NCBI GenBank assembly: GCA_947446285.1
Contig: CANFGH010000001.1
Span: forward strand, 4,730-68,729
Length of the DNA stretch: 64,000 bases
Source: Chloroflexota bacterium
Lineage (GTDB): Bacteria > Chloroflexota > UBA11872 > UBA12225
Direction of reading: 5' to 3'
Under the pieces are notes generated by a model that was not told where the DNA came from, ran no database searches, and saw only the letters and a list, made by a program, of their open reading frames with translations. This document shows positions 17,615 to 43,707 of the stretch, in pieces (the first letter of the stretch is position 1; each line of letters opens with the position of its first letter). The translations under genes were made by a program, and so were the position numbers.

Positions 17615-18841
17615 CTACGCGTTGTCCGCGTTGTGGCGTGTCTCGTCAGTCGGGACGTTCGTGACGGGAGCAGCGGACGGCACGACGAGCCTTCCCTCGA
17701 TGGCATCGCAATAGCCAGGGTCGCGTTCGATCATCATCCACCGGCGTCCGAGCCGTTGGGCAACGAGGCCGGTCGTGCCGGTGCCGGCGAACGGATCGAG
17801 CACGAGGTCTCCCGGCCGGCTTGTCGCCAGGACAATCCTCTCAAGGAGTGACGCCGGCTTCTGGGTACTGTGGACCTTCCGGCCGGATGCATCGCGCAAC
17901 CGTTCGCGACCACCGCAGATTGGCATGTACCAGTCCGATCGCATCTGCTTGCCCCCGTTCAACTCCTTCATCGCCCGGTAGTTGAACGTGGTTCTCGTCG
18001 CGGTCTCACTCTTCTTGGCCCAGATCAGGGTCTCGTGGGCATTGGTGAAGCGCACCCCGCGGAAGTGGGGCATCGGGTTCGCCTTGATCCAGACGACGTC
18101 GTTCAGCAACCAGAACCCTGCGTCTTGCAGCCGTGTCCCGACCCGGAAGATATTGTGATACGACCCGATCACCCACAGGCTTCCCTGTGGTGAAAGGATC
18201 CTGCGGCATTCCTGCACCCATTTTTCCGTGAAGCGGTCGTAGTCCTCGAAGCTGGCGAAGGCATCCCACGCGTCGAAGACCCCGTCGACCGCGGTTTCGT
18301 TCGGGCGCCGCAAGTCCGTTGCGCGCAACTGGAGGTTGTAGGGCGGGTCGGCGAAGATCAGGTCGATCGAGTTTGACGGAATGTGGCGAAGCGCGTCCAG
18401 GCAGTCACCGTTGATGAGGACATTCGGTTGGGTGGCGAGAGTGGCCGGGTCCGGTGAGGCGAGCACCTGTCGGGTCACATAAGACGCACTGTCCAGGCGC
18501 ACCCACGGCACCGGTTGCGTCACCACCGATGGCGTTTCCCTGCCGACAGGGGTAGGCGATGGTGACGAGGGCTTTCGGAGGGCAGGGGTAATCTTTTGTT
18601 TTCCGGTCACGATGCGGAGCGCGCGGGCACGCCCTGTCTCCGTGGTCGTTGCCCCAGCGTCACCGGGGAGCGGGATGGATGCCGGAACGATCCGCAGCGC
18701 CTTCGGTCTCGCGCCCGCAAGCACCTCTGGCGTCTCGACGTCAGATCCGATGGCGGTTGCCGTCGGGGCGTTCGTCGAACTGGACGTGCTGGAGGGGTCA
18801 GTGTCAGGATCGGTGTGTCGTCGCCTGGCTGCCCGTCCCAT
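17615..18841 (-). CDS. Beta-class DNA amino-methyltransferase, CcrM/M.HinfI-like, with a long low-complexity N-terminus
   Basis: [59 protein letters not shown] and [10 protein letters not shown] closely follow the CcrM catalytic domain. Confidence 0.85.
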
Positions 18842-19235: not shown

Positions 19236-21041
19236 TCAGCGAATATCGATGCGTCGCAGGACCCAAGCAGTGACGGCAAGCGATCCGCCAAGCACCAGGC
19301 CGATGCCGGCAGCGGTCACAGGTTCAAGCCAATCCGGGGCGTTCTCGTCGGGACCGGGTTCGGGGCGCATGACCATGCTTCGGGTCGATGCTGGTGGCGC
19401 CAGTGCACCCGAAGACGTGCCGCCGACGGTGAAGGCCGACGATGCTGCGATGCGCCCGAACTCGCCGGGCAGGTAGATGGTCAGCCATCGCCTTCCGGCT
19501 TCACGTGGCGTGAAGGTGACCTCGTAGACGCCGGGTGCGCCCGCCGCCTGCATGACGCCTTGGGCGACGTCTCCAGCCCGGGGGCTCTCAAATGGGACCG
19601 CGGGGGACCGGCCAACCGTCTGCAGCACTGTGGCATCGGTGAATAGCACCCGCATCGTCACCGGTTCACCCACAACTGGCGACGCCGGACGCAGTTCGAG
19701 TTGGCCCACGACAGGTGCATCGACCAGGCTGTTGGCTTCGGTGCCCCAAATTAGGCGAGGTGCACCGTTGTTCCGGACGGCCGGGGCGATGGCGGTGCCG
19801 GCAAGGCCGATCGAGGCGGCGGCCAGGACGAACTCAGGCCACCGCGAACGGGAAACCTTCACATTGTCCGGAATGCCACTGCGTGCCGGCTGTCTGCCGA
19901 TTTGCGAACCGACGATCCAGCCGGCCACTGCGCCAAAGGCTCCGGTCGCAAGCGTTGGGAGGGCGGCGCGTGCGAGTACTGGGAGTGACCAGACACTGCC
20001 GGCGAGGGCCGTGGTGTAGGGCCACTGCACAAGCATCAGCGTGACCGCGTAGAGCGCCCCGGCTCCGGCAACCATCCCGACTGGCCCGATGCTGCGCCTT
20101 TGGCCGGTTGCGCCGAGGATCAGCACCACGTCAATCACCGGGGCCGCAATCAAGACAAGTGGCACCTCGGGCCGAGGCATCGAGAGCCCCTGCTGGATCC
20201 AGTCGAGCAGCACCCGGAGGATGGTGAACGTCGCCGCCGTCAGCGTTGCTCCACCGACGCGCCGTCCCGCACGCGCTGTCAGCACCAGGCCGAACGCGGT
20301 CAGGGCGGTCAGCAGCGGCGGGTGATACGAAACCGGCACCCGCGCGACGTCAAAGTCATACTCGGCGAGGGCTGCGCCTCCCACGGCAATGAACAGGCCT
20401 CCGGCACTGAACAGCGCCGTGGTGGCCGGTGTCCATCCGGTGGACAACGCGTGCCACGACGCCCCGCCCGCGGTCCGGCTGACGACCTGTGAAATCCCCA
20501 CGATGGCACTGAAGGATGCCAACGCCACACCTCCGATCAGCAGGACATGCGGGGGACTCCAGATGGTCACGTCAAGCCCGTAGACGCGATGCCAGAAGTC
20601 GTCCAGCGGTGCCGAGGCGAGTGCCATTGCGGACCCGGCAATTCCGATGAGTGAGCTGGCAGTCGGCAACCGCGCGGACTGCCATGCGCTCGATACGCCG
20701 TGCAGCGCGGTCGCGAAGATGAGCAGAATTCCGGCATACAGGACGAGGTGGGGAGGGCTCCAGAAGGTTTCGCGCCCGGCGACGATATGCCAGGAGACAT
20801 CCCAGGTGCCCCCGATCAGGAACAGCAGGACCCCACCGATCATCACCAGTTCCGCGGAGAGGTGCCGGGTTGGCTGGAGCCGCAAGCGACCATCGCCGGT
20901 GAACGCCGGTCCGTCATCCCCTTTGGGACGTGTCGTGTCCGGCGTGGCGCCTCTTCTCGCCTGACGGCGTGCCCGGCGGGTGGCCGGCCCTTCGGTTTCG
21001 GGCTTGATGGGTGTGGGCATCTGCAGAACTCCGTGGATCAC
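19236..21041 (-). CDS. Polytopic membrane protein with two DxxWH...PPH motifs, an extracytoplasmic Ig-like (YtkA/FixH-like) domain and a C-terminal anchor
   Basis: WDVSWHIVAGRETFWSPPH and LDDFWHRVYGLDVTIWSPPH, many TM helices, PGVYEVTFTPREAG. The start overlaps the tetR stop (GTGA); alternative ATG at 21020. Confidence 0.75.
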   Translation of the reverse strand: MIHGVLQMPTPIKPETEGPATRRARRQARRGATPDTTRPKGDDGPAFTGDGRLRLQPTRHLSAELVMIGGVLLFLIGGTWDVSWHIVAGRETFWSPPHLVLYAGILLIFATALHGVSSAWQSARLPTASSLIGIAGSAMALASAPLDDFWHRVYGLDVTIWSPPHVLLIGGVALASFSAIVGISQVVSRTAGGASWHALSTGWTPATTALFSAGGLFIAVGGAALAEYDFDVARVPVSYHPPLLTALTAFGLVLTARAGRRVGGATLTAATFTILRVLLDWIQQGLSMPRPEVPLVLIAAPVIDVVLILGATGQRRSIGPVGMVAGAGALYAVTLMLVQWPYTTALAGSVWSLPVLARAALPTLATGAFGAVAGWIVGSQIGRQPARSGIPDNVKVSRSRWPEFVLAAASIGLAGTAIAPAVRNNGAPRLIWGTEANSLVDAPVVGQLELRPASPVVGEPVTMRVLFTDATVLQTVGRSPAVPFESPRAGDVAQGVMQAAGAPGVYEVTFTPREAGRRWLTIYLPGEFGRIAASSAFTVGGTSSGALAPPASTRSMVMRPEPGPDENAPDWLEPVTAAGIGLVLGGSLAVTAWVLRRIDIR

Positions 21042-21661
21042 CGTGGCTGATTCTCGTCAGCCGGCAACGTCGTGGCGGTTTCGGTGCGGTGGGCGCAGGT
21101 GGCCGCGGCGCGCAGCCGCGAGATGACCGCGTGATTGAGTGGACCGGGCAACGGGTCGAGGCCAATGAGGTCCGTGTACCAGAGCCCGTCACAGGCCAGA
21201 CGGACGATCGTTGCAGTAACCGGGTCGATGCCATCGCTTTCCAGGTTTCGCTGCCACCGGCGGTACGCCTCCCGGACTGGTTCCAGCAGGGATGGGTTGT
21301 TCGCGACCGCGGCCGCGATGCCCGTACTCCCCAGTGCCGGTCCATGTCCGGAAGCCTCCCGGGTGGCATGGGCATCCGTCCCGGGAACGGGCGCCTTGAC
21401 CGTCGCGTCAAGGTAGGCGCGCGTCCACGCACCGGGCGTGCCCGGTACCGAGTTCGTCTCCACTTCGGCATCGAACTGCGCGACAAGCGTCTCGACCAGA
21501 CCGCGGATGAGGTCGTCCTTCGAGGCGAAGTGGTAGAGCAACCCACCCTTGCTCAAGCGTGCCTCGGCGGCCACGGCATCCAGGGTCAGCCGCCGCGCAC
21601 CCTCGCGCGCAATCAGCCGCGCGGCGGCCGCAAGGATGGTGTCGCGGGCGTTGGCACTCAT
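21038..21661 (-). CDS. TetR-family transcriptional regulator
   Basis: N-terminal HTH ILAAAARLIAREGARRLTLDAVAAEARLSKGGLLYHFASKDDL; start ATG 21661. Confidence 0.95.
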   Translation of the reverse strand: MSANARDTILAAAARLIAREGARRLTLDAVAAEARLSKGGLLYHFASKDDLIRGLVETLVAQFDAEVETNSVPGTPGAWTRAYLDATVKAPVPGTDAHATREASGHGPALGSTGIAAAVANNPSLLEPVREAYRRWQRNLESDGIDPVTATIVRLACDGLWYTDLIGLDPLPGPLNHAVISRLRAAATCAHRTETATTLPADENQPR

Positions 21662-21677
21662 CGTCGGATGCCGTGAC

Positions 21678-21697
21678 TGTACCAACCAGACGGTACA
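21678..21697. promoter_or_regulatory. Putative TetR operator inside the tetR promoter
   Basis: Inverted repeat TGTACC-N8-GGTACA lying within a minus-strand TTGAGT-N18-TACAGT promoter. Confidence 0.6.
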
Positions 21698-21771
21698 CCA
21701 CTCAAGTCCGGACGGGCCTGCCATGCGTTGGCGATCGGGATCCCGAACTTCCGGGGTATGATGGCACGGTC

Positions 21772-22512
21772 ATGAACGTGTTCACTCTCGTGATGTTGGC
21801 GGGGATGGCATTGTGGTGGGTGCCACCGCTGCGGCGCCTTGTCGTCGAGCGGACGAACCGCACGGTCAAGATCCTTCTGGTGCTGCTCCCCGTCATGTAC
21901 GCAGCCAATCTCTTCTATTCCTTCTTCTGGGGACAGCGAGACGAGTCGACGACGGTCGGGTTCACGGTCCTTGCCCTCCTGATAGTCTGGGGTGGCCTGA
22001 TTGCGGTAGGCAACTGGATGGAACGCCGCAACGCTGGACCGCCCTTGGCGCTTGCGTTGGGGTCGATGAACCGGTTTCCTGGCATGCCCCGGCAGATGGG
22101 TGAACTTGGGCGGGCAACCGTCGCCAAGGCCGCGCGCGATGCAGCCGTGACGGACGCTGCCACTAGGGCTGCGGACGCAGCGGTGACTGTCGGCATTCCG
22201 GCAGCAATCCGCATGGTGGGGATGGTCTCACCGATCGCTGGCCGGATCGCCCAGGCCGTGGCACCATCTGCAATCCGCGCCGCGCAGGCGGCGACGCCGG
22301 GCTTGGTCCGGGCGGCGCAGGCGGCCGCTCCCGGCATGATCAAGGCCGCCCAAGGCGTTGCTCCCGGCGCGACTGAGTCCGTTTCAGGTGCGGTTCGGGC
22401 CGTTCGCAACGTGGACACCGGTTCCGTGGCAATGGCTGCCGGACGGGCAAGTGGACGCCTCTTCGCCCGCGCCCGTCGAAGCATCAACGCGGTCACCAAC
22501 CCGACTGCCTAG
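21772..22512 (+). CDS. Hypothetical membrane protein: 3 N-terminal TM helices and an Ala-rich tail with 11-residue repeats
   Basis: Hydrophobic N-terminus, -10-like TATGAT 9 nt before the ATG, repeats at 22246-22377. Confidence 0.6.
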   Translation: MNVFTLVMLAGMALWWVPPLRRLVVERTNRTVKILLVLLPVMYAANLFYSFFWGQRDESTTVGFTVLALLIVWGGLIAVGNWMERRNAGPPLALALGSMNRFPGMPRQMGELGRATVAKAARDAAVTDAATRAADAAVTVGIPAAIRMVGMVSPIAGRIAQAVAPSAIRAAQAATPGLVRAAQAAAPGMIKAAQGVAPGATESVSGAVRAVRNVDTGSVAMAAGRASGRLFARARRSINAVTNPTA

Positions 22513-41925: not shown

Positions 41926-43707
41926 ATGAGCAGTGAAGTCTCAGGCGGGATGCGTCGTCGGCAGGCCATCGGTCTCGTCGGCGCGATTCTTGGAGCGGCC
42001 TCGGGGGCGGTTCCGGCGACCGCATTGGCCCAGTACGGCATGGGCGGTGGCAAGGCCTTCAACGGGGCGTACCCGTACGACCTGCCTCCGACGGGGCACT
42101 ACAACACATTCGCGACCGGATTCATCGGGGCCGGGATCTATTGGGACCTGCTGGAGATGCCGCTGGGCATGTACTACTGGGCCAAGGGCACCTGGATGCC
42201 GTTGATGGCGACGTCGTGGGAGACCATGCCGGATCGCAACATGTTCCAGGTGAAGCTTCGCCAGGGTGCGAAGTGGAGCGACGGCAGTGCATTCGGATCG
42301 AAGGACGTGGTCAATACGTTCCTTCTCCAGAAGTTGCTCAACAATGTCGTCTGGCGCTACGTCGACAGCATCGAGACGCCTGATGACTACACGGTCAACT
42401 TCATCATGGGTAAGCCCACGACCATCGTCGAGCGCTATGTGTTGCGTACCCAAATCAGGTCCAGTGCCACCTACGGCCCGTGGGCGAACAAGGTCCGCGA
42501 CTTGGTCAATGCTGGCAAGACCGCTGACTCGGACGAGTGGAAGGCCCTTCGCAAGGACTTCAGCGAGTTCCGTCCCAAGGCCATGATCACGTCGGGTCCG
42601 TTCGCGATCGATCCTAGGAGCATGACCGAGGCACAGTTGACCCTGACCAAGGTTTCCTCGAGCTGGGCAGCGCCCACCGTCGGGTTTGACTCGGTGGTCC
42701 TGTATAACGGCGAGACGCCGACCATCTCCTCCGTCGTCCTGTCCAAGGAAGTCGACTACGCGACCCACGGGTTCCCGCCGGCAACCGAACGGGCGTTCAA
42801 GGATCTGGGGTTCCGCATCCTTCGTCCGCCGACCTACGGTGGCCCCGCGCTCTACTTCAACTACGCCAAGATGCCGGCGATCGCCCCCAAGGCGGTCCGT
42901 CAGGCCATCGCCCACGCGATCAAGCGTGAGATCGGCGCAGCGGCGGCATTGGGTGAGTCGGCCGAGCCCCCGAAGTACATGACTGGCTTCTCGGACCGTC
43001 TTGTCTCCAAGTGGATGACACCCGATGCCATCGCCAAGCTGAACAAGTACGAGTACAACCTGGCCGGCGCCGAGGCTCTGATGACTGGCGCGGGCTACAA
43101 GAAGGGTTCCGACGGCGTGTGGGTCAGCCCGGACGGCGAACGGATGGAGTACGAGGTCACCGTGCCGGCGGAATTCGCCGACAACTCGGCACTGGCGCAG
43201 GCCGTCGCCGAGCAGTTGACTACCTTCGGCATCAAGACGACCGTCCGCCTGATCACCTTCACCCAGCTGACGCCCGACACTCAGGCAGGCAACTTCCAGA
43301 TGGTCATCCAGGGCTGGGGATCGGGCAACCCGCATCCGCATTTCGCGTTCGTCGCCGATCTGTTCACCTGGAACACACCGGCCGGTGCGGGTCCGGGAAT
43401 GGCGTATCCGCTGATCCAGAAGGTGGATGCCCTCGGCGGCGAGGTCGACCTCGACGCGATGATCACGGCCTCGGCGCAGGGGCTCGACCTCGAAGCCCAG
43501 AAGGACCTGATCGGCAAGTTGGCGTTGGCGTACAACGAACTCCTGCCGAACATCCCGCAGTATGAGCGTCTGGGCAACAACCCAGCTCCCGAAGGCATCC
43601 GTGTCAAGGGATGGCCGTCGGTTGGCGACCCGATCTTCGACAACAGCCCCTACGCCGACTCCTTCACCATCATGCTCATTCTTGACGGAACCCTGAAGCC
43701 CGCCTAG
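41926..43707 (+). CDS. ABC transporter substrate-binding protein, family 5 (Opp/Dpp fold, likely oligosaccharide-type), Tat signal
   Basis: MRRRQAIGLVG signal, KLRQGAKWSDGSAF, ITSGPF; heads a permease-permease-ATPase-ATPase cluster. Confidence 0.88.
   Translation: MSSEVSGGMRRRQAIGLVGAILGAASGAVPATALAQYGMGGGKAFNGAYPYDLPPTGHYNTFATGFIGAGIYWDLLEMPLGMYYWAKGTWMPLMATSWETMPDRNMFQVKLRQGAKWSDGSAFGSKDVVNTFLLQKLLNNVVWRYVDSIETPDDYTVNFIMGKPTTIVERYVLRTQIRSSATYGPWANKVRDLVNAGKTADSDEWKALRKDFSEFRPKAMITSGPFAIDPRSMTEAQLTLTKVSSSWAAPTVGFDSVVLYNGETPTISSVVLSKEVDYATHGFPPATERAFKDLGFRILRPPTYGGPALYFNYAKMPAIAPKAVRQAIAHAIKREIGAAAALGESAEPPKYMTGFSDRLVSKWMTPDAIAKLNKYEYNLAGAEALMTGAGYKKGSDGVWVSPDGERMEYEVTVPAEFADNSALAQAVAEQLTTFGIKTTVRLITFTQLTPDTQAGNFQMVIQGWGSGNPHPHFAFVADLFTWNTPAGAGPGMAYPLIQKVDALGGEVDLDAMITASAQGLDLEAQKDLIGKLALAYNELLPNIPQYERLGNNPAPEGIRVKGWPSVGDPIFDNSPYADSFTIMLILDGTLKPA

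Follow-up and report, generated by a model that had tools for sequence, protein, structure and literature searches.

A stand-alone membrane protein with a duplicated PmoC/AmoC-like core in a Chloroflexota bacterium

Architecture of the protein and its two Asp/His/His motifs

Here, we describe a membrane protein encoded in a stretch of 64,000 nucleotides from a Chloroflexota bacterium (GenBank assembly GCA_947446285.1, contig CANFGH010000001.1, positions 4,730 to 68,729), which will hereafter be referred to as the window. Its open reading frame (ORF) lies on the minus strand at 19236..21041, directly downstream of a gene for a TetR-family regulator. The ORF has 601 amino acids when read from the GTG codon at 21041, which overlaps the stop codon of the TetR gene. 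The ATG codon at 21020, which gives 594 amino acids, is more likely to be the true start, because it has a GGAG sequence 8 nucleotides upstream and because it is the start used by the closest homologues (594-595 amino acids). No Pfam model (E ≤ 1) and no NCBIfam model matched the 601-residue protein, for which twelve membrane helices are predicted, with both termini inside. On the basis of sequence and fold comparison, we describe it as a stand-alone, internally duplicated and remote homologue of the core of PmoC/AmoC, the C subunits of the copper membrane monooxygenases (CuMMOs), and as a member of a very large family, of which no description was found in the literature on distant PmoC-like and AmoC-like homologues.

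The protein was modelled with AlphaFold2 on the family alignment, with a predicted local distance difference test (pLDDT) of 87 and a predicted template modelling (TM) score, pTM, of 0.88. In the model, residues 1-61 are disordered, eleven helices fill the segment 62-424, a β-sandwich is formed by residues 444-559 and a final helix by residues 572-600. The N-terminal tail (residues 1-61, at 20859..21041 on the minus strand, as are all features of this protein) is Arg-rich, with 12 Lys and Arg residues, is predicted to be cytoplasmic and was modelled with low confidence (pLDDT 46-64). The first four helices (residues 62-190, 20472..20858), which can be described as two duplicated helical hairpins, make the PmoC/AmoC-like core, recognised by HMMER against the PDB, by hhalign and by Foldseek. 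Helices 5-11 (residues 205-424, 19770..20429) carry a conserved Glu227 at the outer end of helix 5, and Pro294 and Asp/Glu304 within helix 8. Between helices 11 and 12 there is an Ig-like β-sandwich (residues 444-559, 19365..19712), for which Foldseek finds filamin, SoxZ and CrdA-like proteins, and within the clade of the window protein this domain keeps the motifs P-[FY]-ESPRAGD and GRR. The C-terminal helix 12 (residues 572-600, 19242..19328) would anchor the Ig-like domain to the membrane.

Lys and Arg residues number 22 in the inside loops and 3 in the short outside loops. Based on this positive-inside count, both metal-site motifs and the β-sandwich are predicted to be on the extracytoplasmic face, which bears out the extracytoplasmic Ig-like domain of a preliminary description of this locus. 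The CuC and CuD sites of PmoC lie on the extracytoplasmic side as well.

The first motif, DVSWHIVAGRETFWSPPH, corresponds to residues 81-98 (20748..20801) and reads D81-x3-H85-x4-R90-E91-x6-H98, that is, D-x3-H-x12-H; it is the equivalent of the PmoC CuC site. The second, DDFWHRVYGLDVTIWSPPH, corresponds to residues 147-165 (20547..20603) and reads D147-x3-H151-x5-D157-x7-H165, or D-x3-H-x13-H; it is the positional equivalent of the PmoC CuD site. The preliminary description had pointed out both, and both are found in the translation with the spacings given there and at coordinates that were right to a few bases. In the model, each motif consists of the end of a helix, a loop of 8 residues and the start of the next helix. 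Conservation was counted in an alignment of 225 homologues, 222-224 of which are aligned at the motif positions. In the first motif, D81 is kept in 221 of 222 sequences and H85 and H98 in all 222, and in the second motif D147, H151 and H165 are each kept in 223 of 224. The accompanying residues are nearly as constant (R90 in 217/222, Asp or Glu at position 91 in 221/222, and D157 in 224/224). A smaller alignment of 64 sequences has D81, H85, G89, H98, D147, W150, H151, G155, D157 and H165 as invariant columns. As judged from these alignments, the conservation of the motifs is far beyond chance. Two acidic positions outside the core are also conserved, E227 in 209/224 and Asp or Glu at 304 in 206/217.

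Relationship to the C subunits of copper membrane monooxygenases

When the single protein was compared with all PDB chains by phmmer, only three matches were obtained, all of them AmoC (9cl6_C, 9pxf_G and 9leg_C, E 0.04-0.18), and one of these alignments spans both motifs in register. A profile of 64 family sequences searched against the PDB with HMMER again had AmoC chains as its top three matches, with E-values of 5.4e-4 to 6e-3. When the 64 members were scanned singly with Pfam, AmoC was matched by 15 of them (best E 9.8e-4), and the next families by two. A six-frame scan of the whole assembly with the Pfam AmoC model (PF04896) had the window ORF as its sole match (E 0.23). For profile-profile comparison, seven diverse CuMMO C subunits were taken as references from plasmids of Nitrosomonas, Methylomagnum, Methylocystis, Rhodococcus and Mycobacterium; a tblastn search of phage records with an AmoC fragment gave no match. 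The A and B subunit sequences that served as references likewise came from plasmids. The family aligned to these seven sequences in hhalign with an E-value of 2.7e-5 over 117 columns. With deeper profiles, of 225 family members and 93 C subunits, the probability was 82% and the P-value 1e-5, while the reversed-profile control gave a P-value of 0.63.

The alignments place the conserved residues of the family on the metal ligands of PmoC. In PmoC, CuC is bound by Asp156, His160 and His173 and CuD by Asn227, His231 and His245, and Arg165 lines the pocket (PMC12576850). Residues D81, H85, R90 and H98 of the window protein align with Asp156, His160, Arg165 and His173, and with D136, H140, R145 and H153 of Nitrosomonas AmoC. 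The motif string with which the preliminary description had compared the protein is genuine; it is found in Methylocystis PmoC, and the CuC ligands are those reported (PMC12576850). The first site thus has, like CuC, the spacing D-x3-H-x12-H, an Arg at the ninth position after the Asp and an acidic residue at the tenth. Residues D147, H151 and H165 align with the CuD ligands Asn227, His231 and His245 (N207, H211 and H225 of Nitrosomonas AmoC) with the same x3/x13 spacing, the first ligand being Asp in the family and Asn in PmoC/AmoC. An acidic residue follows the first His of this site by six positions in both, as D157 in the family and as an invariant E217 in the C subunits. Both families also have a Trp preceding the first His and the segments R-[DE]-T and P-x-H. 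The protein had been described as carrying two copies of the PmoC motif. Both motifs are present; however, the second is probably not an addition to PmoC, since by order, x3/x13 spacing and alignment it corresponds to the CuD site.

A fold comparison with PmoC/AmoC, which the preliminary description had proposed, supports the resemblance for the core and not for the full-length model. Residues 58-196, modelled alone with AlphaFold, form four helices (pLDDT 94). In a Foldseek search with this model among 350,542 PDB chains, ranks 1-4 were 9leg_C, 9pxf_G, 7s4h_C and 9cl6_C, with probabilities of 0.99-1.00, TM-scores of 0.50-0.61 on the query, and 20-22% identity over 147-150 columns. Further PmoC chains appeared at ranks 9, 14 and 17. 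The four-helix core has the same order of elements as PmoC/AmoC (PF04896; 7S4H chain C, 9CL6 chain C, 9LEG chain C and 9PXF chain G), and in both both sites are located at the outer, periplasmic ends of the helices.

The fold search also bears on whether the four His residues could ligate haem, as in a b-type cytochrome. Their spacings, H-x12-H and H-x13-H, resemble the H-x13/14-H of cytochrome b, and cytochrome b561 is among the fold matches with an E-value of about 1.2, where AmoC/PmoC score about 100 times better. In the AlphaFold models, a loop rich in Gly and Pro (GRDTFWSPPH) separates the two His residues of each pair, so that they are on different helices at the outer face rather than 20 Å apart on one helix, and we rejected the haem reading of the spacing on this topology. 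The invariant Asp partners suit a metal-ion site, and haem ligation is hardly credible.

Several of these results weigh against the proposed relationship. None of the similarity scores is overwhelming by itself; the best E-values are 1e-5 to 5e-4, and the E-values of the Foldseek search with the core were modest (0.009-0.06). The Pfam AmoC score of the window ORF, 11.4 bits, is far under the gathering threshold of 26.7 bits. With the full-length 601-residue model no PmoC chain was found in the top 50 PDB matches; this output consisted of junk long alignments and of generic Ig-fold matches (filamin, SoxZ, CrdA). Modest scores of this kind, the failed threshold and the empty full-length search would be expected if the resemblance were convergent or accidental, a generic helix-loop-helix motif with a metal-binding or structural role. 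Four-helix bundles are common, and cytochrome b561 and sensor domains also came up in the fold search with the core at TM-scores of 0.5-0.6. We consider such convergence very unlikely, since sequence methods (HMMER, hhalign and the Pfam model) and the structural method (Foldseek) all rank AmoC/PmoC first and the sequence alignments keep the ligands in register. Moreover, the match extends past the ligands, to the Trp in front of the first His, to R-[DE]-T and P-x-H, and to the acidic residue six positions after the second-site His, and the reversed-profile control gave no signal. Because these methods use different information and agree, the first four helices are in all probability homologous to the PmoC/AmoC core.

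The two hairpins of the core are duplicates of one another. Residues 60-124 of the family aligned to residues 125-192 in hhalign with a probability of 98.4% and a P-value of 4e-15, while the equivalent halves of PmoC had no detectable similarity to each other (P 0.098). The preliminary description of a stand-alone, internally duplicated protein of PmoC fold is therefore upheld by the sequence-profile, profile-profile and fold searches, by the similarity of the halves and by a genome that lacks pmoA and pmoB. The first half of the family is similar to the CuC half of PmoC (P 4.8e-8) and the second half is so more weakly (P 6.4e-4). Neither half is by itself significantly similar to the CuD half (P 0.04-0.06), which for the second half is a further point against the proposed correspondence, and the equivalence of the second site to CuD consequently rests on collinearity, spacing and the fold match. 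Since the duplication is clear in the family and not detectable in PmoC, the comparison suggests that the family is a bridge, and that the two-site pocket of PmoC arose by duplication of a hairpin. A suboptimal hhalign alignment (P 0.0065) places the first motif of the family on an invariant G-x-D-x3-P in the N-terminal part of PmoC (residues 45-70 of Nitrosomonas AmoC), a hint that PmoC contains a third hairpin repeat in degenerate form.

Beyond the core, helices 5-10 gave a collinear alignment with PmoA in hhalign, in which residues 223-346 correspond to PmoA 46-170 over 113-117 columns. The score is weak (P 0.011 with 3 PmoA sequences and 0.024 with 113; reversed control 0.62). This alignment pairs P-x9-D and W-P of the family with LP...ALxLD and NWP of PmoA. 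Neither Pfam nor HMMER against the PDB found similarity to PmoA (PF02461) for the membrane protein or the family.

The window protein is not a CuMMO subunit. Its score is under the Pfam threshold, eight helices and an Ig-like domain come after its N-terminal core, and the genome lacks pmoA and pmoB. In contrast, PmoC/AmoC proteins have 250-290 amino acids, with two helices before the core. That no pmoA or pmoB is nearby had been stated in the preliminary description, and it holds for more than the neighbourhood: neither pmoA (PF02461) nor pmoB (PF04744) was found in the window or in the 3.42-Mb assembly (217 contigs, 89% complete), while the same search found both genes in a methanotroph plasmid and in a Mycobacterium plasmid used as controls. 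Unlike the hosts of CuMMOs, the organism belongs to a Chloroflexota lineage without CuMMO genes.

The family, its partner protein and the gene neighbourhood

A word-based search returned 83 homologues, none of which has a Pfam domain. When 1.84 billion cluster representatives were searched exhaustively with HMMER, 4,989 clusters scored E ≤ 1e-3 and 1,076 of them E ≤ 1e-30, so that the family comprises about 5,000 clusters at 50% identity, and no Pfam or NCBIfam model covers it. The window protein has the hallmarks of the family, which are both triads with G89, R90, G155 and D157, and the duplicated hairpin pair that opens a membrane domain of at least 10 helices. A scan of one genome per species, with an alignment of 17 sequences as the query, located at least 521 loci in Chloroflexota, Acidobacteriota, Gemmatimonadota, Actinomycetota, Myxococcota (Citreicoccus inhibens M34), Rokubacteria and others. 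Eighty of these loci were kept for the neighbourhood counts given below. One actinomycetotal locus is on the Rubrobacter marinus plasmid NZ_CP045122.1 (L047/L095, about 42942-43256), where tblastn matched the core at a place with no listed coding sequence, beside a hypothetical protein of 237 amino acids; in this cultured organism, it may be a pseudogene or a gene with a mis-called start.

Among 41 relatives of the window genome, every one of the five genomes of the genus carries the gene, as does most of the family and of the order; the other families of the class lack it. The window genome has a second member of 454 amino acids on contig 26 (20278-21375; L003:1375-2739, minus strand), with the motifs D-x3-H-x14-H and D-x3-H-x13-H, and this second gene is conserved across the rest of the genus as well. 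In a sister genus of Chloroflexota, two ORFs take the place of the gene for the window protein, a membrane ORF of about 386 amino acids (L006:6001-7161) and an ORF of about 199 amino acids (L006:7169-7768), the latter matching the Ig-like domain and terminal helix of the window protein. A gene for a Trm112p-like zinc ribbon is located directly upstream of the split gene in 7 loci.

A shorter form of the protein is found in Acidobacteriota, Gemmatimonadota and Myxococcota. It has about 390 amino acids and the same membrane domain, with both triads, E227, D/E304 and the same predicted topology, and it is translationally coupled or fused to a partner of about 500 amino acids (e.g. L064:5914-7071 with L064:7055-8596). 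The clade of the window protein has instead the fused Ig-like domain with its terminal helix, and the TetR gene. The partner gene overlaps the family gene or is fused to it in 42 of the 80 loci, all of them outside Chloroflexota and in the three phyla of the short form; further examples are L063:7047-8558, L068:7065-8585, L037:7071-8609 and L050:7055-8665. After its signal peptide, the mature partner is predicted to start with a His that is invariant, and it comprises a β-domain of about 125 amino acids, two helices and a His/Met-rich C-terminal region with the invariant motifs DH-x3-MH, H-L-H-P, Y-x-GM-x2-HA, H-x-HP and FPYGFP. It has no Pfam match, and its N-terminal domain weakly resembles the copper-resistance protein CrdA, the top PDB match (E 0.13). 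The layout, with a β-domain that begins with His, two helices and a β-domain, is common to the partner and PmoB. This likeness is an analogy only, since hhalign detected no similarity between the two (P 0.035 over 23 columns). Likewise, the partner and the Ig-like domain of the window protein had no significant similarity (P 0.03).

The partner raises the main alternative to an enzymatic role, in which a periplasmic carrier would load the sites with copper or another metal, to be transferred through the membrane or to a client protein in the manner of CopC-CopD or YcnJ. In YcnJ of B. subtilis, a CopD membrane domain and a YtkA-like domain are combined in one protein. By analogy, CopD/YcnJ proteins are, like the window protein, polytopic membrane proteins that carry, outside the cytoplasm, an Ig-like domain of the FixH/YtkA/CrdA type, the kind to which the C-terminal domain of the window protein belongs. 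They work with CopC, a periplasmic protein that bears an N-terminal His, and the family's relatives do so with a partner whose His-first sequence, known also from the histidine braces of PmoB type, and His/Met-rich motifs occur in the 42 loci. Metal handover would also suit the acidic residue conserved within helix 8 (D/E304) and the MerR, ArsR and CDF genes near some members. However, the ligands and fold of the window protein are of the PmoC type and not of the CopD type, and no similarity to CopD or to any transporter family of Pfam or NCBIfam was found: the protein itself matched neither CopD (PF05425) nor YcnJ, and CopD was not among the families listed for 64 relatives. Furthermore, the one homologue that could be detected is an enzyme's catalytic core, no conserved chain of transmembrane ligands is evident, and the clade of the window protein has neither a partner nor conserved metal ligands in its Ig-like domain. 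On this evidence and by analogy with CopD/YcnJ, metal handling is rather unlikely, while still the chief competitor of a PmoC-core-like metal protein with oxidative chemistry, which is the explanation that we favour.

The TetR-family regulator is encoded on the minus strand at 21038..21724, with matches to PF00440 (TetR_N, E 1.6e-13) and PF17937 (TetR_C_28, E 1.1e-28). Its stop codon overlaps the start of the membrane-protein gene by 4 nucleotides if the GTG is used and precedes it by 17 nucleotides if the ATG is used, and the two genes are likely to be co-transcribed because of this overlap or short gap. The TetR gene directly precedes the membrane-protein gene not only in the window but also in L015 and L016, two relatives at 86-88% identity; it is missing beside the gene in relatives of about 51% identity, and recurs independently beside distant actinobacterial members (L007 and L058). 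Other members are flanked by regulators of MerR and AraC type, so that one-component regulators repeatedly adjoin the family, which speaks for the explanation favoured below. From the adjacency and the probable co-transcription, we infer that a ligand of TetR may induce the membrane protein, as the preliminary description proposed. A perfect palindrome of 10 base pairs, CGGGATCCCG, is located at 21736-21745, 12-21 nucleotides upstream of the TetR start, in a divergent intergenic region of 47 base pairs. It is a candidate TetR operator and could be due to chance in GC-rich DNA.

On the other side of this intergenic region, a protein of about 246 amino acids is encoded divergently (21772-22512, plus strand); it matched no family and has three predicted helices and a long tail rich in Ala. 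A similar gene for about 250-280 amino acids is found at the same position in L005 and L015-L018, with or without an intervening TetR gene. Downstream of the membrane-protein gene there is a CcrM-like N6-adenine DNA methyltransferase (17615-18841, minus strand) with a low-complexity N-terminal extension of about 140 amino acids, which is syntenic in the close relatives L005, L017 and L018. It probably has no functional link to the family gene. The synteny with TetR, the methyltransferase and SbcCD is confined to the clade, and clustering of the 80 neighbourhoods found no enzyme or transporter neighbour that is conserved across phyla except the partner.

Proposed function of the two-site core

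In the proposed mechanism, each hairpin would contribute three residues, namely an Asp and a His from the outer end of one helix and another His from the beginning of the helix that follows. The two Asp/His/His triads would thereby be placed side by side in the outer leaflet, facing the extracytoplasm together with the fused Ig-like domain. They would bind one or two metal ions, most likely copper, and with these the protein would carry out oxidative chemistry on a substrate that is either membrane-soluble or bound to a surface, while helices 5-11 and the Ig-like domain would shape access to the site and the co-transcribed TetR repressor would restrict expression to the presence of its ligand. 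The parts of this proposal differ in strength. A metal is probably bound at the Asp/His/His sites. That this metal is copper is about an even matter. For copper speak the 42 of 80 loci in other phyla where the gene is coupled or fused to the His-first partner with its His/Met motifs, and the weakly CrdA-like N-terminal domain of that partner.

Several points weigh against copper, and against the proposed mechanism more generally. Asp/His/His triads bind Zn, Fe or Mn too. The Ig-like domain of the clade of the window protein has no conserved His, Met or Cys, and a profile of the partner had no match anywhere in the window genome, so that the hints of copper come from other branches of the family. 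Finally, the gene neighbourhoods gave no clue to a substrate.

A non-redox metalloenzyme with Zn, Mn or Fe in a two-metal site that is richer in carboxylates, acting as an intramembrane hydrolase or transferase on a lipid or envelope component, is a further alternative. In its favour, both triads begin with Asp, while the CuD site of PmoC begins with Asn, and the further invariant acids D/E91 and D157, which flank the sites, give more carboxylates than in PmoC. Sites rich in Asp and His are typical of Zn enzymes and of binuclear hydrolases. Members of the family are also common among heterotrophs that oxidise neither methane nor ammonia. We hold this explanation to be improbable, since no similarity to a known membrane hydrolase family was found with Pfam, NCBIfam, HMMER against the PDB or Foldseek, and since the His-first and His/Met features of the partner in other phyla favour copper over zinc.

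Taken as a whole, a PmoC-core-like metal protein that faces outward and carries out oxidative chemistry is the explanation we favour, and we regard it as somewhat probable. A narrower statement, that the protein acts as an oxidase or monooxygenase rather than as a metal handler or a hydrolase, is doubtful.

Significance of the family

The CuC/CuD pocket of PmoC/AmoC is currently viewed as the active site of the particulate methane and ammonia monooxygenases, enzymes that govern fluxes of methane and nitrous oxide and are hard to study outside native membranes (PMC11725843). A large single-chain family that keeps both sets of ligands would offer simpler proteins in which such a site could be studied. 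The CuMMO phylogeny of Khadka et al. 2018 has no true outgroup and uses the most distant ingroup instead (PMC6215863), and the family could root the XmoC tree.

A bolder possibility, which is unlikely as it stands, is that the family is an unseen sister or ancestor-like lineage of the CuMMOs. Its single chain would then hold a symmetric pair of Asp/His/His sites ancestral to CuC and CuD, with helices 5-10 corresponding to PmoA, and the form in the window would be a TetR-controlled membrane oxidase that works without a partner on a hydrophobic substrate. If this were true, the family would provide an outgroup for XmoC trees and a simpler model for the disputed chemistry of CuC and CuD.

The window copy adds a variant to the family, one without a partner, fused to an Ig-like domain and linked to a TetR gene, rather than a mechanism. 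The roughly 5,000 unannotated clusters to which it belongs amount to a large annotation gap in the membranes of soil and freshwater bacteria.

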